Below, in pieces: positions 17,489 through 55,576 of a DNA stretch of 64,000 bases. A program made the position numbers and the translations under genes. Each line of letters opens with the position of its first letter. Position 1 is the first letter of the stretch. This DNA is from Psammoneis japonica (Eukaryota). Location: contig QPGO01000137.1 in NCBI GenBank assembly GCA_008632985.1, positions 124,001 through 188,000 on the forward strand, written 5' to 3'. Below the pieces are notes generated by a model, which did not search any database, had not been told where the DNA came from, and worked only from the letters and a program-made list of their open reading frames with translations.

Positions 17489-17566
17489 ACATGGTCATTG
17501 TTTTAGAATCTGCTGCAAACCTCATTGAGCAGCATCAGCAATGTCGATGCAAAACCCAAAACCAAC

Positions 17567-25108: not shown

Positions 25109-25620
25109 TGTTTGCTTGGCAGCAAGTGTTGAGCCTCGTGGCTGACAATGTAATGATGTGGATTAGTCTCGACAATCTTTGGATGATCAGGCGTTCGTTC
25201 TTGCTAGCTTCTACAGCGAAAGGTGCAACTTTCAACCAATCGCCCTTGGCGATTTTGTGAGCAGCTTTTGTTTTATATGTATTTTTAAAATAGCTGAATA
25301 AAATATATTGTACAGATGCACTCCACTATCATAATCGATGTACAAATATTTAACGGTCACATATTTTGGTTGCGTGTTGAGTCCCGTGAGCTCGCGACGT
25401 GGGAATTGCAATCGTGAAGAAGAATCACCAATGCCTGCTCTAGACGCGTGTCCACCAAGAGCACCAACCCACCTGATCCTCGGAGCTTGGTGTCTCAAGG
25501 CTCAACAACCTTCTTCATGTCTCCTGCCAGGGTGCTTTCTTTGCGTCTGTCTCTCCCCAGTGGTCGTTTGTGCACAGCTCACAAAAGAGCAAATCTTTTC
25601 TTCACACATCACTTTTCCAG

Positions 25621-28600
25621 TGACAGGATTTGAACAAGATCCCAGTTTGTCACACACAATTGTGTGTGCTCTTAGTTCTGCGCGCATCGCGCGACGTAGT
25701 TTGCTTTCGAGCCACAGGCTCACGAGAACAATGACAGCAGCACCAACATCAAGACACCAGTCTTTCGGCTCCTGTGACGGTCTCTGCACGGAAACTCATC
25801 TGCTGTTTAGACAGCAGCAAGGAGTCATTGTTTTCTTCCACCCAGTCATCTTCATTTTCTGTCAGATTAACAGTCTTGCTCTTCATCATCCATTGAGCGT
25901 TCATCATCGTCATCGAGAAATTTTTGATGACACGCACCGCTTGTGGCAGAAGCACACATCTGCCTTCTTCACTGCTGGACACTGGATTAAATCTACACGT
26001 TTGGATTTGTCCAATGCCTCCCATCGTTGGATGTGTTTGTTCAACGGACATTTGTTTGGCCAGGAATTCCCAAATTCTCAGACATCCGAGATTCCGGATT
26101 CCTCACAGCGGATCCCACCAATCCATCCGCACACGTCCATGCACACACGACATGAACCCCTGACTCTGGCTCTGCTCCACGCATGCCAAGTCTACCGCCT
26201 TGCATCTGCACTGGATTGCTGGTCCTCTGCAGTCCCACAAGGTCTACTGGGACAACTGTGAGAGGAAGCAGTTTGTGATTGCAGCCTGCGTTGGGGCGAG
26301 GGTGCATTTCCCACGTTTGTTCATCCCTCCACAGCGCCAAATTTGGCCGGCCTGATCGGGTTGTCCAACTGACACAAAACAAGAACGGTTCAGAGGTCTT
26401 GTCCACCTCTGGCCAGCTTGTCAGCAGGGGTTTTTAACCCATTGCTCTGCTCTCAAGCAACCCAAAGCATCGCCAGCTGCGGGTTCGGACATGCCGGCAC
26501 AACTCTGCGGACTGGACAGGAAACTTGGCACTCAACTGCAAACGGGATGTCACAGCCCAGCGGTTTCTGACTCTTGAGACAGTTCAAGACATCAAGTCAA
26601 GATTCAAGTCAAGTTTCAAGTTGTTTCAAGCCCACACTCTGATTCCAGCCAGCTGTGACATCCACCCAGTTGCAACATGGTTCTCACCAGGCAACAACAA
26701 ATCGATGGCCTCGAGCACATTCTAGGCACTGTTCTGAATCAAGCCACAGACAGTCCAGTGTGCTCCGCCCTCAACATTGATGGAACCAATTTGCATCAGG
26801 ACCTTTTCACTTTTACTCTGATGCAATTGGATGCCCTTGTGTGCAACGACGGCACCAAGCAAATGCCCTTGCCACGTGGTTACAAAGCACAGACAGCTGC
26901 GCTGATTAGCCTGCACACGGCAAAAGCACGCGGCGGCGCGGATGTCAGCAATGACCCTCAGTTGTTCACACAAGAGGAGTTCACCAACTGTCATCTTAGT
27001 CCTGAGTGTGCAGCGTCCCTCTCGATGGGTGCAGCACCATCTGCTCCCACTCCTGGCTCGTTGCCACCCAAACCACGTGATCCCATGCATGACTTTAAAT
27101 GAGGCATTAAACGTGACCCACTTGCCTTCGCACTTCTCAAGTCCGACAAACAGTGGCACATGTGGCACACCTCCATCATCACACAGGCCCACTCCCAAGA
27201 CATTGCATGTGCACTCTCGATCTGATGCACAAGCCCTCCACAGCTGAGGACAAGGCCCTGTTTGATGAACAACAGAAGCACATGTTCGCAGTGTTTGAAC
27301 GGATCTTGCAGAATGACAAAGGCAAGGCACTTGTTCATCAACATGTCGGCTCCTCTGATGCTCAAGCGGTGTGTCATGACCTCTCCAAGTGCACCCTCAC
27401 TTCCACCCATGCATCCCTGGAGTCCTTGACCCTTCTCACACACCTCACCACTGCTCGCCTTGGTGATGGCACCTGGAAAGGATCCACTCATGCCTTCACA
27501 CTTCACTGGCAGGATTTGCTTCGCAAGTGTGAAGCTCTTGTCCCGGGTGCGGACCATTTCTCTGCTGGCCAGAAACATGTCATGCTTGAGAACGCCATTC
27601 ATCCTGTTGAAGAACTCCATTCAGTGAAGAATCAGGCCAATCAGTTCCGCACTCAGAATGGAAAGGGGCCCTCTTACAAAGAGCACTGTGGACTCCTGCT
27701 TTCTGCTGCAGCACAGCATGACAGCACGTTCGCTCCCAAGACAGCTCCTTGCACTCCGCGCCGTGCCATCTACAAACATGACCTGGTCCCTGATGACCCT
27801 GATGATGATGCATTCTTCAACATTGACAGTGATGTTGACGTCATCCAAGCTCATGCTGCACAAACTCGCAGCAATTCCCTCACCAAGGAACAACGGCGTC
27901 GCATTCCGCCGGACCATCAGCGCATTTGGGACACCTCACCCCAGCCCACCAAAGCGATCATTCTTGGCTCGCACACCGCCCACACCGGCAACTGCCATGA
28001 CTTGACGGCGGTCAACCTGCATGACCTCCGCATTGGCAGTGATGGCAATGTCAACTTGTCCGCCAACACTCACGATCTTGCGTCAGCCTCAACACAATCC
28101 GACACTGCAGCCGATGCAGCCGATGCCAACCCCATCCTGGCTCATCTCACCAGGCGCAAGCCTCTGCCACCTGGCAACTTGCAACATCTCCTGGCACCTG
28201 AATGGCCTCCTTCCACCTGTTCTGGCAAAAAACCGCCCGGATCTGCACCTTCCGTCCGCTCCGACGCAAAGCCCAATGACACTGTCATTGAGATCAACAG
28301 CCACAAATGCTGTCACGTCAACAACCACAATGTTGTCTGCTCTGCCTCGACCCACAAGTCAACTCGCAAAGGTGCTCTCGTGGATCATGGTGCAAACGGT
28401 GGCATCGCCGGTGATGATGTTTGTGTCATTGCCCGCACTGGTTGCCAGGTTGACGTCCAAGGTGTCAACGATCATCAACTGGTGGTGGACATTCCCATTG
28501 TCACTGCTGGTGGTGTCATCCACACGCAACGCAGCCCTGCCATTGCCATCCTTCACCAGTGTGCCCACACTGGAAAGGGGAAGACGATGCACTCTTGCAG

Positions 28601-31600
28601 CCAGCTCGAGTGGCACAAACATGATGCCATGAATGTGAACTCAATCCCAAGGATCCTGACTTTGAGTCCCTCTGCCCTTGCTTTGGCTTTTTCCCAAAGG
28701 ACACTGTCCGCCGCACTTTTGATTGCATGACACAGTGCACCCGCATGCCAGCCAGCACGCACCTGAAAAAGGCGCGCAAACTGCCCAACCCAGCTCTCAA
28801 TGTCCGCCGACGTGACAACCCGTTGCCACCGACATGGTCCACTCCGACACCCCTGCCATTGACTCTGGTTGCACCAGCGCCCAGCTCTTTGTCGGCATGG
28901 AATCTCTTGTCACTGACGTGCATGACACCAAAACTGACAAAGGACGCATTCCAGCCCTAGGTGGGAGCTCGCAGCACTGACGTGTGACACAAATAATTTT
29001 TGTCATCCGTCGCATGTTTCGCACGCTGTTTTGCGAAGCCCCAGACGTTTTGTGTGACGAATTTATAGAAACAATGATGTGCCAGTTACATTCTTCAATG
29101 TCTGAAGAATGTAACTGGCTGAGTAAAAAATGATGTACTTCAATCATGGGCGAGTTTGTGCGTTCGCAAAATTGCCTCATTTTCTGTTGGCGATCATTGA
29201 CATTTTAATTACCGCACAATTTTAGTGCGGAGCTCGCACGTAGAATTCTACGGGCCCAATGTCACACGGATTCCCACCTGCGTCTGGAACGCGTCAAAGA
29301 ATTCGTCAACACCCTTGAAGACAACATTCGTGATCGTGGTGCCCCGTCCAAGCTCATCAGCGACCGTGCTCAGGTTGAGATCAGCAACAAGGTTCTTGGC
29401 ATCCTTCATGCCCTCTTCATCTCTAGTTGGCAAAGCGAGCCTCACCAACAGCATCAGAATTTTGCTGAACGCCGCTGCCAAACTGTGAAGACCATGGCCA
29501 ACACTGTCATGGATCGCTTTGGGTCCCCGGCTCACACCTGGCTGCTCGCCCTGATGCACGTGTGCTTTGTGCTCAACCACATGGCGTCAGCCAAGCTCCA
29601 CTGGCACACCACCACCAAGGTGCTGTCCGGCTCCACTCCCAACATCGCCCGCTCCTCCGCTTTCAATGGTGGGAACCCAAGTGCCACCACCTGGATGATT
29701 CCAACTGGCCACCCGAATCCCGTGAATTGCATGGCCACTTGGTTGGCATCGCCGAACACGATGGTCACCAAATGACATTCAAGATTCTTTCTGATGACAC
29801 TCAGAAGATTCTCTGCCGTTCCAACATGCGCTCCGCCCATGATCCGTCTGCTCCAAACCTGCTTCTTGATCCTCCTGACAAGAAATCTGCTGAACCTGTC
29901 ATTAAATCCTGCCACGACTCTGAGGATTTGCCAGATTCACCAGATGGGGCGGCGATGAGGATGCCCAAAATGCCAGTCTTTGACCCCGAGGATGTCATGG
30001 GACGCACCTTCCTCATGAAGCCACAAGAGGATGGACAATGCCACAGAGCCTGCATTGTCAAAGCCGTTGAGGACCATGACTGGAAAATTGGAGACAATCC
30101 TGAACTGGTCAAGTTCATTTGCTCCGTCAACAATGACGAATGCAAGGAAGTCCCAGCCTGCAACAACATCATGCACCACATTGAGCAAGAAGATGAGGAC
30201 ACCACCCTCTGGAAGTTCTGATGCATCACATCGCACGAAGGGCCATTGCGACCCCATCATCCCTCTTTGAAAGGCTCAAGCTACAATGTCATGCTTGAAT
30301 GGGAGAATGGAGAGATCACGTCTGAACCCCTTGCCATCATTGCCAAGGATGACCCCCGTCACCTGTGCCATCCACGCGCGTGAGCACGGCCTTCTAGAAA
30401 CCGAAGGATGGAGACATTTTTGCAAGACAGCCCTTTGTCAGAAGAAGCTGTTCCGCATGGCCAACCAAGCCAAGTTGTGCTCCTTTTGCACTGCGCCATG
30501 ACACAAGTGCGGGCATGAAGTGCCATGGGACTGCAAGCATGCCATGGCCCTTGATGAGCACAATGGCAACCGCAAGTGGGGAGACGCAACGGACCTCGAG
30601 ATGACTCAGCTTGATGAGTGCAAGGTCTTCCACGACTGCGGACACCACAAGGATTCCAGTGCTCCATCAGGACACAAGAAGATCCGGGTGCATCTTGTCT
30701 GCGACGTCAAACATGACGGACGGCACAAAGCAAGGCTTGTTGGCGATGGACACCTCACAGACGTGCCCATCGACAGTGTCCATTCCGGAGTGGTGTCTCT
30801 CCATGGCCTGCAAATGATGATCTTCCTCCTGGCTGAGCTCAACGAACTAGAGACCTGGGCCACTGACACTGGGAATGCCTGCCTTGAAGCTACGACCAAG
30901 GAGAAACTGTGCATCGCAGCAGGCCCCGAGTTCGGCGACCTGGAAGGACACATCCTTGTCATCCACAAGGCCTTGTGCGGACTCACTTTGCTGATTGCTT
31001 GCATGCCGAAGGCTTCTTCCCATGCAAAGCCGAACCTGACATCTGGCTGCGTGGGAATGGTGACCACTGCAAATGCGTGGCAGTGCATGTGGACGACCTG
31101 GCCTTCGCCATGAAGGACCCCCAGGCTTTTGCAGACACCCTCATGGAGAAACACAAGTTCAAACTCAAGGGCACTGGACCATTGGAGTTCCATCTTGGCT
31201 GCGACTTCACCCGTGACCCAGACGGTGCCCTGTGTCTTGCCCCCTGCAAGCACATTGAGCGCATGGTTGACAACTGTGCGTGCCTCTTTGGAGAGAAGCC
31301 CCGCACTGATGTGCTTTTACCCCTTGACAAGGGTGACCACCCTGAGCTCAACACCTCCGAATTGCTCAAACCGGAGGGCATCCACCAACTCCAATCCTTG
31401 ATTGGATCCCTGCAATGGGCCGTGTCTCTGGGTCACATTGACATTGCTGCGGCTGTCATGTCCCTGTCTGGCTTCCGTGCAGCACCCCGTCAAGGCCACC
31501 TGGACTGTGCCAAATGCATCTGCGGATTCCTCTCCAAGATGCGTCATGGCACCCTCCAAGTGCGCGCCGAGGAGCCCGACTGTTTGGACCTCCCTGAGCC

Positions 31601-32465
31601 CGTGCATGACTGGGCTCAATCTGTGCATGGGGAGGTAGAAGAGCTGCTCCCACAAGATGCACCCAAGCCACTTGGCAAGTTTGTCACCACCACACACCAT
31701 GTTGATGCAAACTTGTTCCATTGCATGCTCACTGGACACTCTGTCACTGGCATCCTCCATTTCCTCAACAAGTTTCCAGCTGATTGGTTCTCTGACAAAC
31801 AAGCAACAGTCGAGACTGCTGCACATGGATCCGAGTTTGTTGCCGCAAGGACGTGTGTTGAGCAGATCATTGATCTGCGCATCACTTTGCGTCACCTTGG
31901 CATCCCCATTCGTGAAACATGTTGCATGTTCGGGGACAACAAGTCGGTTGTGGACAGTGCCACCATCCTGCACTCCAAGTTGCACAAGCGACATGCCGCC
32001 CTCTCATTCCATCATGTGCTTGAGGCAATTGCCTCCAGTTTCCTCAAGTTTCATTTCATTGAAGGCTCCCACAACCCAGCTGACATCCTCAGCAAGCATT
32101 GGGGTTGCTCACAAGTCTGGAACCTCCTTTGTCCTCCAATGTTTTGGAACTTCGATCCTGAGGCTTTCAACCAATCTGACCTTGAATCCATCACTGTTGA
32201 CCCCTCAAGCAAACTGGGGAGTGACAGGATTTGAACAAGATTTCAGTTTGTCACACACAATTGTGTGCGCTCTTAGTTCCGCGTGCATTGCACGGCATGG
32301 TTTGCTTTCGAGCCACAGGCTCACAAGAACAATGACAGCAGCGCCGACATCACGACACCAGTCTTTCGGCTCCTGTGAAGGTCTCTGCATGGAGACTCAT
32401 CTGCTGTTTAGACAGCAGCAAGGAGTTGTTGTTTTCTTCCAACCAGTCATCTTCATTTTCTGTCA
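25621..32465 (+). mobile_element. Ty1/Copia (CoDi-like) LTR retrotransposon, structurally complete but mutationally dead; LTRs 25621-25864 and 32222-32465
   Basis: 244-bp LTRs with TGACA...TGTCA termini, 5-bp TSD TCCAG (25616-20 / 32466-70) and PPT aaactggggag. Gag from 26677, protease ALVDHGANGG, integrase (FVNTLEDNIRDRGAP), RT (KARLVG, AVHVDDL) and RNase H (HGSEF, GDNKSV, NPADILSK), in Copia order. Confidence 0.95.
28943..29295. mobile_element. 353-bp MITE nested in the Copia integrase
   Basis: Imperfect 24-bp TIRs (gacgcattccagccctaggtggga / tcccacctgcgtctggaacgcgtc) and 4-bp TSD AAAG. Removing it restores ...KTDK-EFVNTLEDN. Confidence 0.88.
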
Positions 32466-34031
32466 TCCAGCTTGGTCAAGACAGAAATGAGCAACGGATC
32501 AACCACACAAAAACAAACAAGGGTGAGACTCGCTCACCTCTTTCTTCCTTTGGTCATTTTGGGGAGATTGCCAGCAGTCAAGTGGTGTGCATTGGGTGTG
32601 TTTTCATGCCCCCCAGGTGAGAAGCTTCTGGACAAATTGCAAGGTTTTCTGTGTGTTTTTGCGTGTCACATGCACCCAGTGCTAAATCTGTGCAAGAAAA
32701 TTGAGCTCCAAAGCACAGGTGTGCTTTTTGTGCCACCAACCACAAATCACCCATGATGCAGAGAAAATGGTGCCATGCCACAACCACAAACTTGGTGGCT
32801 CTTGCACCAGTGCCCACAATGACAAAGAAGGCAAGAATGTCAACAGAGCACAGATCAACAAGACCACATGCTCAATGCAATGATGTGGTTGAAATTTTTT
32901 TGATGTTTGTTGTGTCTTGTGCAGCCTTTTTTCTTGCAACTTTTTTGACATCTGTGTTTGGGCAAGTTGTCATGACATGAAAAGGGAGGTCAGAGCGGCA
33001 CATTGGCAAGATTCTGTGCTTTCTTTTTGTTGATGCCTGTGCCAGACTTTGCATTTGGAGAGGATCTCAAGGATTGAGCTGCCACACTGAACAATTGTGG
33101 AGATCTGCAGGTGCAGCAGACAACTCACATCAACACCCATGAGTGCTGTGCTCTTGATTCTCAAATTTGCACACAGCAAATTGGCTCAGCACAGACAATG
33201 GAGTGCTGATGACATTTTGGAACTTCTGGAATGTTCCAAATTGTTGTGTGAGTCAGATGCTGCGTCAACTCTGAGAAGAAGGTGACAAAAGAGTCGCCAA
33301 CTCATGTGTGTGTGAGAGAGTTTTTCTGAGCTGTTTGATGATCAGCCCTCAAATGGAAATGTCATCATCCTCAGTTGTTCCTTTCTCCAGCAAATGATGG
33401 AGATTGGTGCCCTCATCACATTCCTCTTGGTTGACGCTCCCAGTGTCACCACAGTCAAGTGCAAGATGGGGGGGGGGGCAGCTGGTGCACTCCTCATCAA
33501 CGTTGGAGTGGCCAATGGCCACTGTGAAAGAACCTGACAATTGGGGCATCTGCCATGGATTCTTGATCTGAGTCAGAGCACCCTTTTTTCCGCCACTCTC
33601 TGTTGGCTCTGACGTGCACAAACACAATGAGAGAGCTTTGCTCACTCTGCGGTGTGGTTGTGAGAAACTTCCACTGTTGCACTCACCCCACTTGTTTTTA
33701 AATTTTGACGCTGTTGCAAAAATGATGAATTCAAAACCTTGGCGAGTTGCAGGTTTTTGTTGCACAAAAAGACCAGAGTGCCAAATGGCAAACGGAGGGG
33801 GGTCTACTCTAGCTAGAGAGCAAGGGAGCAGAGGGGGGAAACGAGGCCGTGAAACGTCCTGGCCCTACAATGACTGGGACACATGCCTCTCGATGACCAA
33901 CGTATTATACGGTACCTGTTGTACCGAACACCATCTTTCCGTTGTCGTGAAAATTGTACCACACAGTATGTGCCACAAACGCACACCTACCGTACCTCGC
34001 TCCCTGCCTAATTTTGCGGGATGCATGAACC

Positions 34032-35489: not shown

Positions 35490-36020
35490 AAAAAGTTCCA
35501 GCATCCACCATCCAGCACCAAGTGCCTGCAGTCTGGCGCCCACCATCCAGCACCCAGCACACACCATTCGTCAGCTGCCATCTAGCATCAACCATCTTGG
35601 GTTTTGCCACTTGAAAGGAGAGTCACAGTGGCAGTCTGTCTACAAAATGGTTTCTGCACATGTTTTGCACTTTTGCCCATCACCATCACCTCCAGCCCGA
35701 TCCAATTGGAGCTGGGCTGGTCGGGATTGGGCTGGAGGAGGTGGTGGGGGCAGATGACAGTGCAAACCATGCATGGAAACTGTCATGCAGACAGACTGCC
35801 ACTGCGGTTCTTTTTGCAAGTGGTGATGCCCAGTGTGCCATCCACCACCCACCATCCAGCATCTGGTGTCTGCAGCCCACTGCCCACCATCCACCACCCC
35901 GTGGTCCAGCATCCACCACCACCCACCCTCCAGTGCTCAACATCCATCACCCAACACCCATCACCTGCCATCAACCATCTGCCATTCAGCACCTGCCATT
36001 CAGCACCACTCAGCATCCAG
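35490..36020. repeat. Low-complexity imperfect tandem repeats (catccac/ccagcac units) in decayed sequence
   Basis: Repeated ccatccacca/ccagcatcca blocks at 35500-35590 and 35840-36020. Confidence 0.55.
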
Positions 36021-36995
36021 GCTGATCAGGTCTGGCCCAGCGTGGCTTTGTCAGAGACAAAAACAAACCTCCAAAAAAAATGTGTGGACAAATCCAATGT
36101 TGTCTGCCTCTCTTCTGACAATGCTCACAGAGCAAAACAAGAAATTGCTTTGTCCATCATGCTCTGTTTTCTGTTTGACAGTTTTGAAGGGGAGAGGACA
36201 CTGTGGACAACACCTCCGCACCCCAGCTGTGCCCACACAGTCAAAATTGTTGTCTCATTTTTGCTTTGACAGCAGGAGCAAAAAGATTGCTTTGGTGGTC
36301 ATTTTTCCCAGTTGCTGATTCTCAAAAATTTGAAATCAACAACCAAAGACAACACAGTGTGCAGAGATGGCTGCGCGCAATGCAATGAACCTGTGGCGCG
36401 ATGGCAGGAGATGGGGGCCTGTTCCAGCCCCAGGTGATCCGCAACCCATCAAGCAAGATTTTCCATGCAGGTCTCAGCACCAGACAATTTTCCCAGCAGA
36501 GCTTGCATTTTTGGGCTTTTGGTGAACATCAAACATCAAACCCTTTGAACGATGTGACACACATTTGTGACAAGAGCACATGTCTCCAACAACTGGGGCG
36601 TGCATTTCGTCACAGGAACAACAGTGTCAGCTGGCATCCAACATTGTTCTTGTGATGTGTTGATCAATGCTTGCTTCTGCACGCATGTGTGGTTCACACA
36701 AAAAAACACCCCATGCACAACATCAGAGCCACAACACAGCACACCACTGTTGCTGCTCTCCAGCCCCCTCTTTGCCCTTGAGGTTGCAAGGAACCATCTG
36801 TTCCTTTCATTTGAAAGTCATGCCATTGTCACCACAGCACAATTGCAGCTCCGTGCAGTTGCTTTTGTTGTGGACAATGTCATCTTTTCACATTTTCTTG
36901 TGTTTGCAATTTGGCGCTGGTGACAGGGAACAGACGGGTGACAAGAAATGGGCAGCCATGCTGCTGAACTGTGGCACTTGTCCTTTTCTGACTGG

Positions 36996-37446
36996 TGCAA
37001 CACACAGCTGCCAATGAGAGTTGATGCATCACGGTGACGTGTTGCAGCCTTTACATGTCACAAAGGGCGTGACAAAAACAACCTTTTGTCTGCATGCATG
37101 CTGCATTGTGAATTCACAGCGGAGTGGTTCATCGCAACCATTGGGCAGGAGGCCAGGGGTTCGAAACCCTGAGTGGGAGTTGTCTGCAGCAACGTTGATC
37201 ACTGTCGAACGTGCAAAACTCTGTGCAGTTCTGTGTGTTCCTTCACACGTGCCCACACTGTTCCGCCAAAACCGTGCAGTGTCAGCACACGTTCGTCAGT
37301 GAAGAGCCGCATGGACGCGTGATGCATGGGGAGGAGTGCAACATGCAGCCACCAATGAGAGTCAGTGCATCACGGCAATGTGTCACAGCCTTTAAATGTC
37401 ACAAAGGGCGTGACAAAAACAACCTTTTGTCTGCATGCATGCTGCA
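36996..37446 (+). mobile_element. TRIM (miniature LTR element) copy A; 110-bp LTRs 36996-37105 and 37337-37446
   Basis: TG...CA direct repeats, PPT ggggaggag before the 3' LTR, 4-bp TSD CTGG. Confidence 0.88.
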
Positions 37447-38774
37447 CTGGACTTGTTCAAGCCATTTTGTTTGGCTTGAACAAGAAGTTGGAGGCATGTC
37501 TTCATTGTCAGAAGTTGCTGTTGCCTCATTGCATGGGAGTGTTGGGTTTTGAGAATGTTGTGGATGCCACACCTCAATGTCCAGACTTGACAGAGGTCTG
37601 CAAGCACTGAGAGTGGGACAATCTCATGAAAAACAATGGAGACAACACTGTTGCACTGTGTGCAAAGGAGCTGGTTGCTCCAACAAGTGCTGCAGCTGTT
37701 CTGGCATTGCCTCATTCCAGCCAAGAGCATGTCAGCCATGCCACTGAGATGAGCAACGATCATGACTCTTGGGAGGAACTGCTTGCTGAAAGCAAAAGCT
37801 GCATTGCCAAGAGTCATCATGTCAGCGCTGCCAAGTGACAGCCAGGTCAACATTGATGGCTCAGAAAAGTGTGATCCTCCAATGTCAGAACCAGAGATCC
37901 AAAAAAGACTGCACGACCATGTTTTGGCAAGATCATGTTTGACAGTTGCTGGACAACTGAGTCCAGGTTGAGAGTGAAGAACAAACTTAAAATGTTGGCA
38001 TTGAAGGAATTACACGTCAAGCTGCATTGCAACACAAAGTGCGCCATTTCATCTGCTGAATGGCTTTGGCATGAAACACACACAACCGCCAGTCTGATGG
38101 ATCAGAAGTTGTTGCTCAAGAGGAAGCAGGTGGACAAAACACAGTGTTGCACACCAGGTGTCAAATGTCACAAGCAGAAGAAGTCCAACGGTGGGTGCAA
38201 CAACAGCAATTGTGTTTTCCATGACAAGCATTGTGAGAGGCACCAGGATCTTGTCTGGCATTCCCCAGCATCTCCAGGAGTGCACCATCCTCTGGCCCTT
38301 GGAACATGGTTTAGATGTGCTCCCTTGCAACCCCATTTGCCAGCCTTGACAGTTGTCATGGGTGGGCCAAACTTGCTCCACACCATGTCTTCCTGTGCTT
38401 TGCAGGACAGCTCATCCCATTGCAGCAGATGGAAACCCTCATCAAATTCACAAGACAGTGCAGCACAGCCCTTTGTGACAACTTCATCTGCCATTTCCTC
38501 AGTCAAAATGTCCAACTCACAGATTTGTGAACCAGCTGCACCTCGTCAACATCACTCTCAGTTGTTTGAGCTGCCTGACAAACTGTCCAATCATTCAGTC
38601 CCTCAAAGATGGGCCACAGTTTGCAAGCTCAGTTGCCAGCTGCATGCCAAGGCTGCTCGGCAGGGCTGACATTGTTCTTTGCCCAAGGTCATCTTGAGCT
38701 GATCCAGGAGGCAGTCTTCACAAGCACAAGGAGTGCATTGAATGGCAACCCAACCAACAGCAGGAAAAAGAGGC

Positions 38775-39400
38775 TCAAATTGAAAATGGCGCGTGGCACC
38801 AATGCCACAATGCACAGTGCCACTGATGCAGTTGCGCCAATCCCAACAACTTGACTCTGGCTGCTGAAGAGCCAAGACCGTCATTTGGATCTTGCAGATG
38901 ACACACCCTTTCTTTCAACTTTAAAAGGGATTCCCTCACAGCATGTTTCCTGTTGTCATCTGCACCTTTGGCATTCTCTTCCCTGAGAAGAATTCCAGAA
39001 CATTCTTTTGAGTGCCTGTTCTCAACTGCAACATTGTTGTCATTCACAACCAAAGCACCAGCTCCAATTTTTTGCAGACTGCATTTCTCAATGCAGCACA
39101 AGTGATTTGACACAGGCTCCAACTCCATCAACCTCTCCTTTGCCATGTCCGGGTGCTCCAACCACCATCAAATCAAAAAAATTGCAACGTGCACAAAATT
39201 TGTGACAAATTCCAAGTCCCCGCACAATTGCCGTGCAGCAAGTCAAGAAACAACCCTTGTCACCCTCAAAGATCATCTTTGCAATGCAGGCAACATCCTT
39301 TGAAAAAAGATGTGATGCACAAGAAAGGAGAAATCATCATTTTCAAAGGAAACTGCCTTCTTGTGACTGCAACTCATGCCAATGCATCACAAAATTTCAA
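38775..39400 (-). mobile_element. Decayed DDE/DDD transposase remnant (HGKG..DG.G motif, Sola2-like)
   Basis: ORF 39088..39276 contains APGHGKGEVDGVGA. The superfamily assignment is from motif recall only. Confidence 0.45.
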
Positions 39401-40007
39401 CAAAAATGACCTTTTTGGACAACTGCACTGCCTTTCCTCACAAACAAAACATCACATGGCTCTTTGCAATGACAATGACCCGGTTGGTGTGTTGTTTCAT
39501 GTTGCTTGCAGACCTGCAGTTGTCAAGCAACAAAACAGCAGCATTTGCTCATTTGAAGCAAAAAATGAAGTGCTCTGAGACCTCCCATGTGCTCTCATTG
39601 TGAAAGAATGTGAGCTGTTTGTCTTCACAAATCAATTTGTGACTCACAAATTTTGCATCTCAGCGGCCAATGGCACACGGTCAAAGACAACTTTCTTGCA
39701 TTTGTGGGCAAACACAGACAACAAGTGCAGCGCCAAAGTGCATCAATGCTGTTTGGCGCAACCATCTGTGTGATCCCAAATCACAAGCCACACCTGACAC
39801 AGTCCATGGTTCTCCAAGGGGGGGCGGCTGTTGCTCAATTTGGGAGGGGGCAGGTTGTTGTCTTGGAAAGGACAACCCTTCACGATGACACTTTTTGTTT
39901 TTGCTGTTGTCAGTTTGTGACTTGTGTTGATGGCCAACTCCAGTTTGCCTCCTCTTCTTTGTCATGATGCACTGCAATTTGAGCAAAAAATGTGCACTGA
40001 GAGGGCT

Positions 40008-40454
40008 TGCAATGCACAGCCACTGATGAGAGTTAATGCATCACGGCGACGTGTTGCAGCCTTTAAATGTCACAAAGGGCATGACAAAAATGACCTTTTG
40101 TCTGCATGCATGCTGCGTTGTGAATTCACAGCGGAGTGGTTCATCGCAACCATCAGGCAGGAGGCCAGGGGTTCGAAACCCTGAGTGGGAGTTGTCTGCA
40201 GCAACGTTGATCACTGTCGAACACGCAAAACTCTGTGCAGTTCTGTGTGTTCCTTCATGCGTGCCCACACTGTTCCGCCAAAACCGTGCAGTGTCAGTGC
40301 ACGTTGGCAAAGAGCCGCATGGACGCGTGACACATGGGGAGGAGTGCAACACACAGCCACCAACAAGAGTCAATGCATCACGGCGACGTGTTGCAGCCTT
40401 TAAATGTCACAAAGGGCATGACAAAAACAACCTTTTGTCTGTGTGCATGCTGCA
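40008..40454 (+). mobile_element. TRIM copy B
   Basis: Same LTR-internal-PPT-LTR structure as copy A; 4-bp TSD GGCT (40004-07 / 40455-58). Confidence 0.88.
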
Positions 40455-41795
40455 GGCTGGTGGATGAGATGGATGAGAGGTTGAGAAGGACATCATTTTG
40501 TTGTGCATTCAACCAATTTAACTGTCTGGTGTCTGCAGAAACAGGGCATGTTCAGACACAGTTGAGTTGAAGCAGACCAAAAACATGAGCTCAAAAAATG
40601 AAAACGTGAGCGGGCAGAGAGCATTTTTCACGTGGGTTGCTGTGCTGGCCAGAAGTTGCATTTGGCACAATAAACTCACTCAAGCAACCTTGATTGTTTG
40701 AAAAAATTGAAAGGTGAGTGTGCATGAAAAATGCAAGTTTTATTTGCACTCACCCTTTGAATTGGAAAAAAATTGAAATTGAAAGAGCTCATCTGGCCCA
40801 AATGCAAAAATGGGCCAGAAAGCTGGAGCAGGCCTTTTTTGACTTGCGTGCTGCAGCAACATTGGATGACGGTCAGGCCACACCTTTGTGTGGAGCAGAG
40901 CAACATGATGACCAGCTTTCATTGGAGAGGCGCATCCAAGTGTGGTGGCACACAAGAACCCAGGGGCTCTGCAGTGCCTGCGCGAGTGTGAGCTGAGCTC
41001 TCCGGGGGTCTGCGGGAGCAACGGCGGCAAGCAAGTTCGAGCCCAATTTTCTGCTCTGTTTTTTTTTAAAATGAGCAAGTGAAAGATGATCATTTCAAGT
41101 TTCAACTTGTGCACTGGAGGTGAGCAGAATTTTGTCTTGGACCAAAGATTGGCTTTGAGCTCAGAGCCAGTGGTGCGGCACTGGCAAAACGCCAGCTGAA
41201 CTCTCTCTGCAGCTTCAAAAACACAAAGTGTTGCACAAGCTGACACCGCATCATTGCCTGGTCCAAGAATCACAATGGTGCACCCTACCCAGAGAGAGCT
41301 GGGCTCCGCCCAAGCTGCTTGAAACTGCTGTGCCTCTGCGCGCAGCTGCCACTGTCAAGGGAGGGCCCCACACACACGCACACCGCATCCGCCATGGTTC
41401 CGAGTCTTGCCGCGCATGCGCCAGTCGTGAAACCGGCGGTTGAAGTTGGGCACGCGCACTTTTTCTTCAACCAAACTTGCCTCCGAGATGTGTGTAGAAT
41501 TCTACGTATGAGTAGGGCGAATGCGTTTGATCCGCGGATAAGATACGCGTGAAAGCGGCGATAATGTTCTGGGATCTTGTGTGTCTCGGTCCCATAAAAC
41601 CGACAACCTGCCTTTTGATTGCATCCATCTGTGTTGTTCTTTTCTGTAAAGAAAGAGGTATGTATGATTATGTGTATGATTGTACAGCTGAAAATCAATT
41701 CCAAAAGAGATTTGATGCGAAAGCAAATCACCGCGCTCATCATGTTTTTTCTGAATTGTTGCTTTTCTTGGGCAGGTTCACTTGTGTTTGACATC

Positions 41796-44700
41796 ATGAG
41801 TTCTGAGGCTGAACGCCGTCAATCGCACGGCATTACAGCGATTCCTCCTCCATCTCGTGGCAGGGAGCAAGCGATTAGTGATTCAGCTCCTCCGCCGCCC
41901 TTGCAAGATCCCGTGGCTGCAGCTTCTGGCGGCTCTGCCGCACAAAATGTCAGTTCCACCAATCTCTTTGCCAAGTCAACCGCACCCACAACGGCGTCGA
42001 AACCCAATTCGTGGGACAGTACCTTTGCATGGTCGCAAATGGAAGAGGGTGCACGCAAGTACGAAGCGTACAAGTATCAAGAACCGGGCTTTTGTGAAAA
42101 GCACAAGCGACTCATCATTATTGGCGGCATCATTGCTATTGGTCTTGCAATTGGGTTGGGTGTCGGTTTGACCAACAATAATGACGACAATGACAGCGCT
42201 TCCTCTCTTTTTGCGTTTGGACTTACGAGTAGCAAGCTATTTGTCATGACAAATGCTCAAGATGGCAATGAGGTGGTCATGTATGAGCAGAATGGAAGCA
42301 ATGGAATGCTTTCTCAAGTGGGTTGCTTCCCAACTGGTACGTACGGAAATGTTATGGAATTTTCTTTATGGATCAGGTGAACACTATAAGTTCTATGCTC
42401 ACCACTTTTTCCCTTTCTGTTGTGTTTGCTTCATTTCAGGTGGCATTGGAGGCGCCTTGGGAGGTGCTCAAGCCGGCGAGGTAGCTCCACCCGATGATCC
42501 CTTGGCGTCCGAAGACTCCTTGATTGTCGCTGGCGACAATTGTCTCTTGGCCGTCAATGCAGGTTCCAACACTGTGACGAGTTTTACGGTGGAAAATCAC
42601 GGACTCGCCAACATGGGATCGCACGATACCCAAGGAACCTATCCCGTGAGTGTAGCCGAGTACAATGGCATGGTGTACGTAATGAATGCCGGAGGAGACG
42701 GCAGTTTGGTAGGATTTAATCTACAAGAGGATTGTAGTTTGGAACCCACTGGAGCGGACCCCATTTCCTTGGAACAGGCTGGACCGTTGGATCCACCCTT
42801 TTTTGTAGCGTCACCGGCTCAAGTTAGTTTTACACCGGATGGATCCTTTCTGGTTGTTTCCATCAAGGGCATTAGCGGAGCCGTCGGTCCTGGAACCATT
42901 CGTCTGTATCCGGTGCAGCCCGGCGAGGGACTCGGTACGCCTGAGATTACCACCACGAATGGATTTACTCCCTTTACCTTTGCCTTTGACAACGATGGAA
43001 ACCTAGTCATTGTGGAAGCCTTTGGTACGGCCACCGAGATTCCTACGCTCAATGCAGGCGCGGTTTCCTTGTACACCATTGAAGAATCTGGCTCTCTTAC
43101 AGTGAGCGAAACAAGCGAATCGGTTCCAACCGGTCAAACCACCACTTGTTGGATGTACCATTATGACGGGTGCCTTCTCACGACGAACAATGGAGGGAAC
43201 TCCATTAGCTCATTGAGTGTGTCGAATGGTGAATTAACGCTTCTCAATGAAGGTTCCGAGCCACAGTTGAATGCCCCGATTGATGGCGCATTTTCCGGAG
43301 ACGGAGCCTACTTTTATGTGCTGAGTACGGGCCATACTCTTCCAGATACAGACCCGAACCAGGGTCATCCTGGAATCTATGTGTACTCGGTGGAGGATTG
43401 TGGCCTGACGCAGATTCAAACCATTGCCGACGGCCTTCCTACTGAGTTTGAAACCGTTTTTGGTGCCGTGGGCATGGCCTTCTTGGCTGTTCAAGGCGGC
43501 AGTGATGCGAGCTCGGTTGGTGGTGGTGGTGGTCCCACGTCTCCTCCTCCTCCTCCTCCTCCAGGACCAGCACCTGGACCCGGAACAAGCAACAATCTCT
43601 TTGTCATGACCAACGCTGAATCTGGAAATGAAGTTGTGTACTACGTTAGTGATGCAGATAGTGGGATGCTGTCACGCATCGGAAGCTTTGCGACGGGTAC
43701 GTGTCGTTGTCCTTGGTCTCGTTGCTTTTTCCTACACTACTCATTCGTGTGGTGTCTAACAAATTGGTTTCTTCTCTTCTTTTAAAGGCGGAATCGGTGC
43801 TGCTTTGGGAGCAGAAGCACCTCCCGATCTTGCTCCCCCAGACGATCCTCTAGCTTCTCAAGGATCTGTAATTGTGGCTGGCGAGGATTGTCTCCTTGCC
43901 GTGAATGCTGGTTCCGATACGGTCACTAGTTTCACTGTACAGAGTCACGGGTTGCAAAGCCATGGCTCTGTTCCAAGTGGTGGAGACCTCCCAGTCAGTC
44001 TTGCAGAGAACAACGGGGTTGTTTATGTCATGAATGCCGGCGGAACGGGCAGCATCAGTGGCTTCAACCTGGATGCAAGCTGTGTCTTGACCCCCATTCC
44101 CGGATCTACAGTCTCCTTGGGTCAAACAGGAACCAACGATCCTCCCTTCTTTGTGGCATCACCCGCTCAAATTTCCTTTACACCTGATGGTCAGTTCCTT
44201 GTGGTTTCAATCAAGGGAATCAACGGAACTCCGGGACCTGGAACGATCAGTCTGTATCCAGTAAGTGGCCCTTCGGGATTGCTCGGAACTCCGCAAGTCA
44301 CAACTACAAATGGCAACACTCCGTTCAGTTTTGAATTTGATAATGATGGACATTTGATCATTGTGGAAGCTTTTGGTACTGCTTCAACAATTCCCACCTT
44401 GGAAGCTGGCGCAGTCTCATTGTACACGGTTGAATCGGACGGAGCTCTTACCGTGAGCCCAACGAGCGAATCAATTCCTACGGGCCAAACTACGACGTGC
44501 TGGATTTATCACTATGAGGGTTGCCTTGTCACGACAAACAATGGTGGCAACTCAATTAGCGCCCTCAGCGTCTCGGAGGGAGAGTTGTCATTGCTCAATG
44601 GTGGTACAGAGCCGCAGTTAAATGCTCCGATTGATGGATCGTTCTCTAGCGATGGTCGTTACTTTTATGCCATCAGTACGGGCCACACCATTGCCGCTGG

Positions 44701-46103
44701 AGCACCGGGACAAGGACAACCTGTCATTTACGCTTACTCTGTCTCGGACTGTAGCCTTGACTCGATTCAGACCATAAGTGATGGACTTCCGAGTGAATTT
44801 ACTACTATCTTTGGAGTTGTTGGCATGGCTGTAATGGAAAGGATTGCCGGGCCGTTTGTCCCGTCCCAGTCGAACTCTCTTTTTACCATGACTAACGCGC
44901 AATTGGGAAATGAGGTCGTCATGTATAATCGGGACGTGACTACTGGTCTCCTTTCCTTTATTGGTAGCTTTCCTACAGGTACGCGTTATCAATTCGATTC
45001 GTAATGTTGCTTGTCTAGGTTCAACTAACAAAATGGTTTTCTTCGATTTCTGATTAGGCGGAATCGGTGCTGCTTTGGGAGGAGAAGCGGCTCCCGATTT
45101 GGCGCCACCTGACGACCCACTGGCGTCCCAGGACTCCTTAATTGTCACTGGAAATTGCTTGATTGCAGTCAATGCTGGTTCCGATACCGTGACTAGCTTC
45201 TCGATTGAAGACTTTGGTCTGCAAAGTCATGGTATGCAGTCCTCTGGCGGTAGCTTGCCAGTCAGTATTGCTGAAAGCAATGGCGTCGTTTACGTCATGA
45301 ATGCTGGTGGAGCTGGTAGCATTAGTGGCTTTAATCTGGATTCGAATTGTGTGTTGAGCCCCATTGCGGGATCGACAACGACGTTGGGACAGACAGGCAC
45401 GGCGAATCCTCCCTTCTTTGTAGCATCTCCCGCCCAGGTTGGTTTTACACCCGACGGTGATTTCCTTGTTGTTTCCATCAAGGGAATCAACGGAACGCCC
45501 GGACCCGGAACGATTAGTCTTTACCCCGTTGGAGCTGATGGCGCCTTGGGTACGCCGCAAATTACAACGACGAATGGAAGCACGCCATTTACATTTGAAT
45601 TTGACAACGACGGGAATCTCATTATTGTAGAAGCCTTTGGCACGGCTCCTGACATCCCCACCCTAAATGCCGGGGCCGTCTCGCTGTATGCGGTTGAGAC
45701 AAGTGGTGCTCTTACCGTGAGTACCACCAGCGAGTCTGTCCCAACCAACCAGACCACGACTTGCTGGCTGTATCATTACGAAGGATGCCTCCTCACGACG
45801 AATAACGGAGGCAACTCCATTAGTGCATTGAGTGTCTCGGGCGGTGAACTGGCCCTGTTAAATGGTGGTTCCGAGCCGCAGCTGAATGCACCAATTGACG
45901 GGGCATTTTCGAATGACGGTGCCTTCTTTTACGTTTTGAGCACGGGTCATACACTTCCTGATGACGACACGAATCAAGGCCAGCCGGGCATATATGTGTA
46001 CTCTGTTACGGACTGCAGCCCCACAGAGATCCAGACAATTTCAGATGGTATCCCGAGCGAACTTGTTACCGTCTTTGGTGCGGTAGGTCTTGCTGTTTTC
46101 TAA
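41796..46103 (+). CDS. Type II membrane protein (~1344 aa) with three tandem lactonase-like (6-phosphogluconolactonase / 3-carboxymuconate cyclase-type) 7-bladed beta-propellers; introns 42337-42439, 43697-43787, 44979-45057
   Basis: Three similar ~380-aa units (LFVMTNA..GNEVV, DPLASQ.S, LAVNAGS.TVTSF, PAQV.FTPDG, GQTTTCW). A TM (LIIIGGIIAIGLAIGLGVGL) lies near the N-terminus. The spliced length of 4035 nt is in frame. Confidence 0.85.
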
Positions 46104-50601: not shown

Positions 50602-51577
50602 GTTGGAGTGCTCTCCAAATGGCATTACAGTACAGTAAATTCAAACTTTATATGTAAACATACGTTTTTTAATACATAAACAGGTTTTTGAATTTTATAC
50701 CTCTTTTAAAACTGAATATAAACACTTAGTTTGAAGTCGATTTTCAAATTTGCCGGGAGAGTTGGTCATGACACTGTGTCAACTAAACCACAAAACGGCA
50801 CACGCCAAAAGCAAGAGTGCAAACCACCGCACGCACTTCCTCAAGTGAAATGATGTCCATGATGAATGGCCAGCCCATCAATCTGTCATCATCTTCCCTT
50901 GAGAAAAAATGCTCTCATTTGATTCCCACATGGAAGAGGGCAATGACGCACAGCAGCAGTGCTTCTTGCACAAAGATGGCCTCATTGGCAACACTGGTGG
51001 CAGTGTGGCATTGATGCAGCTGAAGGGGGTGTTGGCACTCTGGAGTGCAGGTCTTTGTCAGTGCACGAGAAATGCAAAAGGACAAAAGCTCGGTGAGTTG
51101 GGGATTCCATGCTGCTGTGCCACTTGGGCTGCACCTCCATTGCGTGACACAGTGATGCCACAAGAGATTTGAAGAAAACAAATTTGAAATTTTGAATTTT
51201 TGGAAAAGAAGGTGCACGCCAATGTGTCAAGAGGGTGCTGCCATGCAAGTGAGCCAAAAAGGCCATCAACCACCATTGCAACAGCCGCTGATTGGACTCC
51301 ACGCTGAGGAGGTTCATCTGGCAAAGCAGCACACATGCATCCACCAAAAGAGAGAAAAAGAAGGTGGCCTGAAATCAATTGCTTCCTTGTCCTTGACCAG
51401 GTCAAGTTTGTGCAATTTTGCTGCAATCTTCCACATTTTATCCTCCGTGTGTCTTGAGGCAGTGAGAGGAGCAACATGACCGCCAGCAGGAAAATGAAGA
51501 GCCAAAGGGGCAGCACTGGCATCCTCTGACCCTTCTTGAAGATGAACAAACCACTGGACAACATGGCACATTTGCGC

Positions 51578-51975
51578 CATGCTCAAAAAGAATGAGTGCA
51601 AATGAAAGCAGAGCAAATCATGAAAAGCAGACATTGTGGCTGAGACTGGATTTTGCACTGCGATTTTGGGATTCTCACTTGACAACAGATTGTCTGGCTG
51701 TGATCGACATGCTCAAAAAGAATGAGTGCAAATGAAAGCAGAGCAAATCATGAAAAGTGGACATTGTGGCTGAGACTGGATTTTGCACTGTGATTTTGGG
51801 ATTCTCGCTTGACAACAGATTGCCCGGGTGTGACCGACATTGACATCTTATGTGTCAACTTTGTCTGTTGATTGCATTTGCAATTTTTGACTTCCAATCA
51901 ACTCTGTGTGATTGATCTTGTCTGTCAATTGCATTTGCAATTTTGGACTTCCAATCAACTCTGTGTGATCGATCT
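51578..51975. repeat. Tandem duplications: ~130-bp unit x2 (51578-51840) and ~57-bp unit x2 (51860-51975)
   Basis: catgctcaaaaagaatgagtgcaaatgaaagcagagc occurs twice; gcatttgcaatttt.gacttccaatcaactctgtgtg occurs twice. Confidence 0.8.
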
Positions 51976-52689
51976 GACCATCATGTGCATCCACAATTGC
52001 CGTGCGATTGACACACACCCAACAAAATGCACAATTGTGAACATGCACAATTTTGTCCACTTGACAATGCACACTGCATTTACCTCCCCAATGGAGACCA
52101 GGACAATTAAAAAATGGGTGACAGTGTGCCAAGTGCATGGAAAATCAAAAAAGACACAAAACATCAAAAGATTTGAGCATCAAGTGCTTGTGAGAAAGGC
52201 AGTTGACAGGTTGTCAGGGACAACAAGAACACATGTGACACATTTACATTGAAGGATTGTGCACAAAATTAGCCTGGAACCCACCAAAGGCAAGCCATGT
52301 GTCACATGCTTGTTCCATGGTGGTGCTCAAGTTGACTTTGATGCCATGCTTGTGCTTGCTCAATGGCATAGACAACAAGAGCTGGGGCGGATCTGGCATG
52401 GACAACTTTCAGATCAAAGCAGCTGACACCGAGAGCAAATGAAATGTGTCTGATTTTTTAAGTTGGTGGTGCAGTGTGCTGCGCATTCAGCAATGCGGCA
52501 ATGACCAGATTGTCTGTCAAGTGAGATTGACTCCATTGTCTGTCAAGCAATCACATTTGACAATGCTGTTCTGTCCACTGCCATTCTACGTTGTCTTTGG
52601 AAATTTTTTGCCAGTTTGAAATTGACTGCTTCTTGAGTGTCTGTTGTGCTCCAGCACTTCTGGCAATCTGTCTTTTTGGTTAAGCCAGA

Positions 52690-54300: not shown

Positions 54301-55576
54301 AAGAAGACAATCAGGTGTCAGTTGATCAAGTGCAGACATGCAGCTGCTTGCGTGCAACAAGGCACATGGTTGCCACTTGTTCCTCTGCCTCTTCCTGATG
54401 GCACATTTCCAAGATAAGCCAGTTGGCATCAACATGCAACAAATGAGTCATCTCCACCACCCACCACACCATGCACCACAGCTCTGTGCCACAAAATGGT
54501 GCACAAGTCAAAAAAAACAATGCTCCTTCTTTCTTGAGAACATGACCAGTGAGCACATGCTTTTTGTCAAACTGCTGGATTCACCATCCTCTCACACTTG
54601 CACCCATTCTCCCATTTGATGTGTTTGCAGCAGCACTTTTTAGAGTGTAACTCAAGAAGCAGGAGGCTGGAAAGGGCTTCTGGGCACATTCCTTTGTGGT
54701 GCACTAGACACATGAGGTCCAGTGCTTTTTCCTTGTCAACTCCGGCCCTGCAAGAAAGGAACACAGGAAATTCATCGCCACATCCATGAGAAAGCAGTTC
54801 AGTGGATGCAGGAGATTGCAGCTCACAAAAGTGTGCTGTCTCGTGCCATCATCACCTTGCCTTTGTTGTTCCTTGCAGCCATGACAAATGCATTGGGCTG
54901 TCACAGCACAGTGGCATGTGTTCAGCAAAACAACTTGTCTTTTGTGAAGTAATTCATTTGACATTCGTCATCCAACTCCATTGTTCTGTCCACACAAAAC
55001 ACAAAATGTGGTGGCTTCTGGACCCCACCTCATTTGAGGCAGCCAAACAATGATCTCTCGGTGGCATGGGAGCTCTCCACATTCAACACCAAGCTTCCGA
55101 CAAGTCTTGCACACATCTGTGACTGGAAATCTCCAATCACTTTCTTTTGGCGCTGCTCCAAGAGCCACCTTCTGTTCAGAGCCCCGCCAAGATTCCCAGT
55201 GGTTTCTTCTCTGAGTCGATTGCAAACTGCCCTCAGGCATTTGAGCATGGTCCTGCCAGGTCCACTTACATCCTCATCCACATGATCGTCAGGGTGTTGT
55301 TGCGGTGAAGCCAAAAGTTCGTGTGTGCAAGACTAAAGGTATAATAAAAGCATTCACGGTTGCCTCTTTGTGACCTTGTTTCTGTTCAAGATAAAAGTGA
55401 ATCTTCCTGTGACACAAGATGAACCAATCGGCATCAAAAGGTGTTTTGGGAGACATTCCAAAGTGCAGCAGTGTCACTCCTCGCATTCACGTTTACCGAG
55501 AGACTTGGCCATGTCACAAGGCCGCATGTATAAAGCCACATTGTGAGGATTTCTCTTACAGTATAGTCGTGTTAAA

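Follow-up and report, generated by a model that had tools for sequence, protein, structure and literature searches.

The locus and its miniature element

The window analysed here is the whole stretch of 64,000 nucleotides from contig QPGO01000137.1 of Psammoneis japonica. It contains three copies, referred to below as A, B and C, of a short element bounded by direct long terminal repeats (LTRs), and these copies differ from each other largely by exchanges of the dinucleotides CA and TG. They lie alongside longer LTR retrotransposons and host genes and are laid out as follows.

36996-37446, plus strand: copy A, a non-coding LTR element of 451 bp; 5' LTR 36996-37105, internal part 37106-37336, 3' LTR 37337-37446
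36992-36995 and 37447-37450: target-site duplication CTGG of copy A
37328-37336, plus strand: polypurine tract GGGGAGGAG, adjoining the 3' LTR
40008-40454, plus strand: copy B, 447 bp; 5' LTR 40008-40117, 3' LTR 40345-40454
40004-40007 and 40455-40458: target-site duplication GGCT of copy B
59356-59802, minus strand: copy C, 447 bp; 5' LTR 59693-59802, 3' LTR 59356-59465
Both flanks of copy C: target-site duplication TTTT, read on the element strand

The three copies are 90-91% identical to each other. Their LTRs are 110 bp long, start with TGCAA and end with CTGCA (CTGCG in two of the 5' LTRs), and they enclose an internal part of 227-231 bp without coding capacity. A target-site duplication of 4 bp was found in all three copies, each copy having its own, and the polypurine tract has the same letters in each of them. 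With short TG..CA LTRs, a target duplication, a polypurine tract, small size and no coding sequence, copies A-C are a miniature non-autonomous LTR retrotransposon resembling a terminal-repeat retrotransposon in miniature (TRIM); the sequence strings quoted in an earlier note on this DNA, which gave them the TRIM label, were all found in place in the copies. TRIM elements were first described in plants. They are shorter than 1 kb and non-coding, with short TG..CA LTRs, a polypurine tract, target duplications and a high copy number, features which the present element shares, while it differs from the plant TRIMs in its target duplication of 4 bp instead of the typical 5 bp, in the lack of a recognised primer site complementary to a tRNA, and in its non-plant lineage. 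No TGG-type primer binding site was readable 3' of the 5' LTR, the window having no tRNA genes for comparison, and this site may be mutated. A tRNA module in the internal part was looked for as well, and ARAGORN found none, Rfam gave no tRNA match up to an E value of 10, and the fold z-score was 0.27; only the internal box-like motifs resemble a tRNA, by comparison with the consensus, and this resemblance was supported neither by ARAGORN nor by Rfam nor by folding. Two weak Rfam matches (HBV epsilon and a CRISPR repeat) were at chance level and were discarded.

The element family is clearly abundant. In contigs from public sequencing runs (X1-X4, all from one sample, which is possibly the window's own source), 1049 contig pieces of run X1 match the element, with a summed word depth three orders of magnitude over that of the flanks, a measure that is not equal to copy number. 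Runs X5-X9, from sediment metagenomes, gave small word shares, which are uninformative as to habitat. Within the 64-kb window no further copies or solo LTRs were found by blastn, and metagenome and viral scans queried with the conserved cores of the element returned 0 outside loci. Copy C starts 13 bases past the end of the gypsy integrase-core open reading frame (ORF) at 59815-60543, in the same orientation. Its position may be due to insertion into the 3' part of the gypsy element to which this ORF belongs; the LTRs of that gypsy element were not found in the window. A hairpin with 13-bp arms, for which Rfam gave a chance-level match only, was observed at 37452-37484, directly after the target duplication of copy A.

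CA/TG swaps between copies and between LTRs

The alignment of the six LTRs showed that 29 of 110 positions are variable, and that these positions make up 15 pyrimidine-purine dinucleotide columns and three single sites. Seven dinucleotide columns show CA and TG only (LTR positions 6-7, 14-15, 17-18, 20-21, 30-31, 48-49 and 84-85), seven include CG (8-9, 37-38, 40-41, 43-44, 73-74, 98-99 and 109-110), and one, at 27-28, shows three states.

37022-37023, 5' LTR of copy A: TG
40034-40035, 5' LTR of copy B: TA
37363-64, 40371-72 and both LTRs of copy C: CA

Over the whole elements, the three pairwise comparisons gave 13, 13 and 16 CA/TG double swaps and 2, 3 and 1 transversions, together with 6-12 single differences of the CpG type (CG versus TG or CA) per pair. 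The copies had previously been described as differing almost only by CA/TG swaps, which is right for the swaps and for the scarcity of transversions, but passes over the CpG-type differences. As a control, three host-like tandem paralogues of the same window (42.4-46.1 kb) were compared, and they had 1, 2 and 2 swaps, while their other differing positions numbered 357, 314 and 310, with 51-59% transversions. Because the host paralogues show only one or two swaps, the excess of swaps in the element is far beyond chance.

Swaps were also observed between the 5' and 3' LTR of one and the same element (5, 5 and 4 for copies A, B and C, respectively), while all other LTR sites gave just three differences summed over the three LTR pairs. 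Because 4-5 swaps separate the two LTRs of each element, it was integrated DNA that took the hits; and since an LTR pair starts out identical, each element arrived with about ten unstable dinucleotides per LTR, which were resolved independently in place. One could argue that no special ancestral state is needed, CA and TG simply toggling by ordinary transitions with TA or CG as short-lived intermediates, and the singletons at swap columns (TA in one column, CG in the two columns 8-9 and 98-99) could be such intermediates. However, most CA and TG dinucleotides of the element are constant (in each pair, 38-43 columns are TG/TG and 47-49 are CA/CA), the columns which are variable among the window copies are the same few that vary in the public-run contigs, and ordinary sites of the LTR pairs hardly differ, as given above. 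Toggling is accordingly regarded as extremely improbable.

TA-erased blocks

For the whole window, the ratios of observed to expected dinucleotides were 0.31 for TA, 0.62 for CG, 1.49 for CA, 1.47 for TG and 1.03 for TC. The 1-kb profile is bimodal: seven blocks, 32.5 kb in total and about half of the window, have a TA ratio of 0-0.1 and a CA/TG ratio of 1.8-2.0, and the other 31.5 kb have a TA ratio of 0.4-0.75, which amounts to 121 TA dinucleotides in the depleted blocks versus 1181 outside them. The edges of the blocks are sharp, within about 100-300 bp. The recognisable host genes, coding for a kinesin, a TylF-type methyltransferase, an ALMT/FUSC-like protein, a lactonase-like tandem array and a glycosyltransferase, are found in the non-depleted part. 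The following blocks were distinguished, with ratios as above.

35501-41500: TA-erased block with copies A and B; TA 0.00-0.09, CG 0.17-0.48, CA/TG 1.8-1.9 in 1-kb windows; no Pfam-recognisable ORF
59001-64000: TA-erased block with a Ty3/gypsy element and, at the block edge, copy C; TA 0.05-0.12, CG 0.60-0.80
8001-14500: older TA-erased block; TA 0.00-0.03 over 8-14 kb, CG 0.07-0.23
16501-20000 and 51001-55000: blocks similar to that at 8001-14500
25501-33500: younger TA-erased block with a copia-like element; LTRs 25619-25864 and 32220-32465

The copia-like element has an LTR pair of 246 bp, 92% identical, and RVT_2 matches at 30502-32234. The blocks with recognisable pol genes (26-32 kb and 59-64 kb) have TA ratios of 0.04-0.22 and CG ratios of 0.47-0.80, whereas in the blocks without recognisable genes TA and CG are both near zero. 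Because the pol-bearing blocks have lost TA yet keep CG and the gene-less blocks have lost both, TA was lost first and CG later.

Several side observations were made on these blocks. Long overlapping open frames run on both strands of the TA-free blocks at 8001-14500, 25501-33500, 35501-41500 and 59001-64000, because TAA and TAG have been erased there. The window contains 77 stop-to-stop ORFs of at least 150 aa, those inside the TA-free blocks being mostly without a Pfam match, and the Pfam-less long ORFs of these blocks are likely artefacts that would mislead gene finders. The right edge of one TA-erased block carries an inverted repeat (14303-14498), with 60-nt arms of 93% complementarity on either side of a 76-nt spacer, which may be a hairpin or an element like a miniature inverted-repeat transposable element. 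Another block has a weaker palindrome at its left edge (35598-35832), without sequence relation to the first.

Direction of change in the gypsy pol

The direction in which the dinucleotides changed was read from the pol gene of the gypsy element, which consists of two adjoining parts.

60544-62931, minus strand: dead Ty3/gypsy pol ORF with reverse transcriptase, RNase H and integrase zinc finger; 795 aa, one of them Tyr
59815-60543, minus strand: gypsy integrase core, continuing pol

For the alignment we used 42 homologues from the first 60 matches, after exclusion of sequences of 1600 aa or more and of those with less than 2% Tyr, and a column was called a conserved Tyr column when at least 60% of the 42 homologues have Tyr. 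Not one of the 17 conserved Tyr columns has kept Tyr in the window pol, 11 of them having Cys and six His, while the conserved Phe (12/12), Trp (11/11) and Lys (13/13) were all retained. Conserved Arg was kept in 13 of 19 columns, and its losses (three His, one Gln, one Trp and one Cys) are, judged from the codons, exactly the outcomes predicted for CpG decay of CGN codons. His or Cys stands in 17/17 Tyr columns versus 56/701 other columns (p = 2e-18). The catalytic Y-x-D-D motif now reads H-I-D-D, and in a comparison with the Ty3 reverse transcriptase (4OL8), counted by hand, its 16 aligned Tyr face six Cys, four His, three Phe, two Leu, one Asp and no Tyr (p = 6e-8). Further changes in this pol, from Leu to Ser and from Val to Ala, fit the same direction. 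The ORFs of the transposon blocks in general have 0.0-0.4% Tyr and 7.6-12.9% His plus Cys, compared with 2.1-4.1% Tyr in five of six host ORFs, the sixth (4050-6410) having 0.1%.

Since Tyr is encoded by TAY, His by CAY and Cys by TGY, the direction of change was from TA to CA or TG. Both directions are present in one pol copy, the 11 Cys resulting from A>G on the sense strand and the six His from T>C, and this finding together with the differences within LTR pairs indicates that the action was on integrated double-stranded DNA.

A TpA-specific transition process acting on integrated transposon DNA has very probably produced the CA/TG swaps. Under this interpretation, each copy would have been hit after its integration by TpA-specific transitions, a hit on the top strand turning TpA into TpG and a hit on the bottom strand being read as TpA to CpA; each ancestral TA would have been resolved to CA or TG independently in each LTR and each copy, which would give the swap columns; and the process would have been confined to transposon-derived blocks and have run there to near completion. 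A second and slower process, the decay of presumably methylated CpG to TpG or CpA, would account for the columns that still show CG. At the level of sequence comparison, our results show TpA-specific transitions on both strands of integrated DNA, confined to the transposon blocks and faster than CpG decay.

The presence of both directions in one copy also bears on the question of whether the changes could have been made in RNA, that is, by ADAR-like adenosine-to-inosine editing of retrotransposon RNA before reverse transcription, fixed at integration. Hyper-edited retroelement copies occur in animals. The preference of ADAR for U before the edited A would agree with such editing, and is also stated in the Discussion of a preprint on Bigelowiella natans (Mettrop et al., bioRxiv 10.64898/2026.01.13.699255). 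An ADAR footprint, however, would lie on the transcript strand only and date from before integration, whereas here the sense strand of a single pol copy carries both A>G and T>C (11 Cys and six His), the two LTRs of a pair share one template yet differ by 4-5 swaps, and whole blocks, inter-element sequence included, are TA-free with sharp edges. The surviving TAs are moreover enriched before A or G, contrary to the preference of ADAR for a following G. RNA editing before integration was rejected on account of the LTR-pair differences and the two directions in one copy, and we consider it most improbable.

TA or CG as the ancestral state of the swap columns

It may also be asked whether classical CpG decay is sufficient, in which case all swap columns would have been methylated CpG and the lone TA would be a double hit. 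CG is depleted in the same blocks (observed/expected 0.07-0.8), 7 of the 15 variable LTR columns retain CG in some copy, and several TG or CA sites of copy A are CG in 90-99% of contig depth. The rate of CpG decay can be estimated from the elements themselves, with 15, 13 and 17 CG/CG columns and 8, 12 and 6 columns of CG against a decayed state for the three pairs, from which the per-copy CpG retention is 0.68-0.85. With a single-rate CpG model, 0.53, 1.38 and 0.26 swaps would be expected for the three pairs, in comparison to 13, 13 and 16 observed. The probability that an LTR column keeps CG in none of the six LTRs was calculated as 1e-5 to 1e-3, and seven such columns exist. CpG decay alone also leaves the loss of TA and the change of 17/17 Tyr columns to Cys or His unexplained.

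The public-run contigs, for which variants were listed from 5% of depth, point in the same direction. Transitions account for 36 of the 37 variant places. By the frequencies at adjacent positions, TA must be present at 37250/51 in at least 33% of depth, at 37300/01 in 39%, at 37342/43 in about 26% and at 37384/85 in 28%; four further swap columns require it in 4-10%. CG was found in excess at one swap column only (37142/43), where the excess amounts to 3.4 points, compared with up to 39 points for TA. At 37300/01, which is TG in copy A and CA in the other two copies, a long contig of 283 nt from run X3 carries TA, and another has TA at 37214/15. The 18 cells that the three long contigs give over the six internal swap columns are all free of CG. 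These three contigs have C at 37212 and G at 37245, the CpG state which is decayed in the window copies, and the two which reach 37377/79 have CG there. The earlier note had named CG, rather than TA, at the swap columns of other copies as the observation that would speak against TA ancestry; because the contigs carry TA at several of these columns and essentially never CG, TA ancestry is not refuted by this comparison.

CpG decay is certainly present, because sites decayed in copy A (37035, 37212, 37245 and 37377/79, where copy A has TG or CA) remain CG in 90-99% of contig depth. At LTR columns 40-41 and 43-44, CG is likewise the consensus, with 90-98% in the contigs, and these CG-consensus columns, like the internal ones at 37212 and 37245, are ordinary CpG decay. 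As the explanation for all swap columns, CpG decay alone is nevertheless very unlikely.

The previous suggestion that an ancestral TA was hit by A>G on either strand therefore holds for most swap columns, in view of the TA erasure, the 17/17 Tyr columns, the CpG rates and the contigs, but not for the 7 of 15 variable LTR columns that involve CG, which are mostly ordinary CpG decay. The three-state site on which it had been built does show TG, TA and CA, and is weak evidence alone because TA there is below the 5% threshold in the contigs and because a lone CG occurs in the same way at two other swap columns, 8-9 and 98-99. The further proposal that the ancestral LTR had a canonical TGTA start has no support, because the two CA dinucleotides which had been converted to obtain it, at 3-4 and 10-11, are invariant in 6/6 LTRs, and the contigs list no variant there that reaches 5%. 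For the remaining columns, we infer that every individual CA/TG-only LTR column derived from TA and that the TpA process was at least two orders of magnitude faster than background.

Several points weigh against TA ancestry and the process proposed here. Among the six LTRs, CG is seen in seven variable columns and TA in one, so that parsimony on these copies alone would favour CG, and the lone CG at columns 8-9 and 98-99 is as single an occurrence as the TA at column 27-28, which in the contigs stays under the 5% listing threshold. A strand rule based on the flanking bases, with a preference for TA followed by a pyrimidine, did not fit the CA versus TG outcome in the six LTRs, in an alignment read by eye and with small numbers. 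The contig frequencies are depth-weighted and, in the most variable part of the LTR, biased to the reference state (depth 13,725-48,151 in that part versus up to 236,491 in the conserved LTR core), and the phased data consist of three window copies and three contigs. The LTR pair of the copia-like element (25619/32220) differs mainly in the CpG manner, with 10 such differences versus one swap and one TA/TG difference; LTRs differ in the number of susceptible TAs which they carry, and not every element had many. Strictly speaking, a fast-decaying subclass of CpG may lie behind individual columns. Finally, the enzyme is entirely inferred.

Sequence context of the surviving TA

The TAs that survive in the depleted blocks are mostly found in TTAA (28 versus 43 in host-like DNA), TTAG and CTAA. 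Other contexts have been lost, with GTAC at 0 versus 112, ATAT at 0 versus 62, and ATAC plus GTAT at 1 versus 167 in depleted and host-like DNA, respectively. The TAs kept in the LTRs of the miniature element are in TTTAAA in five of six LTRs and in TTTACA in the sixth, and the TA of the three-state site is in GTTAAT; all of them are preceded by T and, with the exception of TTTACA, all are in the most resistant context, TTAA. In the copia-like LTRs all three retained TAs are in a T-A-G context. From these counts, TA followed by a pyrimidine seems to be the most susceptible context.

The context does not, by itself, specify the chemistry. If thymine at TpA were modified, to 5-hydroxymethyluracil (5hmU) or a further oxidised form, its mispairing with G would give T>C on either strand and the same sequence outcome, and since A>G at T-A-pyrimidine on one strand is T>C at purine-T-A on the other, the sequence data do not separate the two. 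To our knowledge, no search aimed at it having been made, there is no evidence of 5hmU in this lineage. The T that 5hmU replaces in dinoflagellates is preferentially that of TA and TC, and their transposons are enriched in it (PMC11572971). Here, TC is not depleted (observed/expected 1.03), a dinoflagellate spliced-leader relic was not found in the window (0 matches with up to three mismatches), and the best named matches of two host proteins are nearly all from diatoms, at about 48-69% identity, with one from Nannochloropsis and none from a dinoflagellate, the searched collection containing no near-identical protein. The DNA is thus probably that of a stramenopile related to diatoms, and not that of B. 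natans. A dinoflagellate origin with 5hmU as the cause was ruled against by the spliced-leader search and the diatom-like host proteins, and modified thymine, which stays as a chemical rival only, is considered unlikely.

Comparison with known systems

For the TpA-specific process, the agent would most likely be a DNA adenine deaminase acting on T-A, in analogy to the one proposed for B. natans. According to the preprint on that alga (bioRxiv 10.64898/2026.01.13.699255), 230 of 231 mutations in two integrated viral regions of mutation-accumulation lines were A>G or T>C, all of these were on TpA, at about 1000 times the background rate, the TpA-poor coding sequences were enriched in reverse-transcriptase and DDE domains, and an ADAT2-like DNA adenine deaminase was proposed. 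The two cases share A>G and T>C at TpA only, giving TpG and CpA, as well as foreign or selfish DNA as the target, local boundaries, a rate far above background, long-term TpA depletion with CpA and TpG enrichment, and TpA-poor reverse-transcriptase sequences. They differ in that the targets in B. natans are viral insertions whereas here they are LTR retrotransposons, among them a non-coding miniature element, and in that the footprint here is far heavier, half of 64 kb being at a TA ratio of 0-0.1 in comparison to 124 small clusters genome-wide and a ratio of 0.45 in the viral region of B. natans. The context effect (survivors in TTAA, TTAG and CTAA), the co-occurring CpG decay and the evidence from LTR pairs for action after integration are seen here beyond what is described for B. 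natans. De novo mutations were observed in B. natans, and the evidence here is comparative, with no de novo mutations observed.

Fungal repeat-induced point mutation (RIP) shows a similarity in that dinucleotide-specific transitions are made in place, on both strands, in selfish DNA, and leave sharply bounded skewed blocks and dead transposon genes. RIP has the opposite polarity, its C>T changes leading from CpA/TpG to TpA, so that TA is enriched and stop codons are made, whereas here TpA is turned into CpA/TpG, TAA and TAG are erased and long frames are left in dead elements. In place of the TA enrichment by which fungal RIP is recognised, the blocks have TA erased and CA/TG at 1.8-2.0. RIP also acts on repeated DNA, and a single-copy region was hit in B. 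natans. The deamination of methylated CpG resembles the present process in that one dinucleotide goes to TG or CA depending on the strand hit, and it occurs in these blocks too, where it accounts for the columns with CG/TG and CG/CA; unlike the TpA process, it is too slow here for the CA/TG-only columns and removes neither TA nor Tyr codons.

The footprint is not restricted to the window. Among the best public relatives of the gypsy pol, 150 in number, three (P0247, P0277 and P0298) have 0.0-0.5% Tyr with His and Cys raised, and because these three are below 1% Tyr and rich in His and Cys, the TpA footprint exists in other public assemblies. In the literature searched, the B. natans preprint was the sole source found for DNA hypermutation from TpA to CpA/TpG, and diatoms yielded nothing. 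The present case is thus a new and far heavier instance of the recently described TpA hypermutation, in another lineage and on retrotransposons. We give about even odds to the broader proposal that a RIP-like defence of opposite polarity, an enzyme-driven editing of TpA to TpG/CpA in integrated transposon DNA, is at work both in the chlorarachniophyte and in an alga of the diatom lineage.

If this is true, TpA editing would be old or recurrent among the protists of the stramenopile-alveolate-rhizarian group; it would act within the time of about 1% divergence at ordinary sites, outpace the methylation-driven loss of CG, hit TA followed by a pyrimidine hardest, and turn dead elements into long frames without stops, by which gene finders are misled. 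TpA hypermutation would then not be confined to one alga and two viral insertions, but would shape transposon DNA to a major extent in a second lineage that is ecologically dominant; it would be a eukaryotic counterpart of RIP in which the chemistry runs in reverse, and would suggest a DNA adenine deaminase or something equivalent. It would account for a signature in which TA and CG are both lost, CA/TG is doubled and spurious long ORFs appear in six frames. The change of conserved Tyr to His or Cys in dead pol genes could serve as a diagnostic for any assembly, and the dating of elements by LTR divergence calls for caution in such genomes, where the divergence would be dominated by saturated hypermutable sites. 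The TRIM family may also hold a young subfamily with intact TA, usable as a natural reporter.

Other features of the window

Three lactonase-like genes (7-bladed propeller) stand in tandem at 42250-46103, with 66-70% mutual identity and normal TA content. Tandem repeats of 66 bp, in four to five units, were observed in host-like DNA at 3404-3733. Near these repeats, an ORF of 786 aa (4050-6410, minus strand) is of low complexity and coiled-coil-like, with a weak apolipoprotein-type match, and it is nearly without Tyr, His and Cys although it lies in TA-normal DNA.

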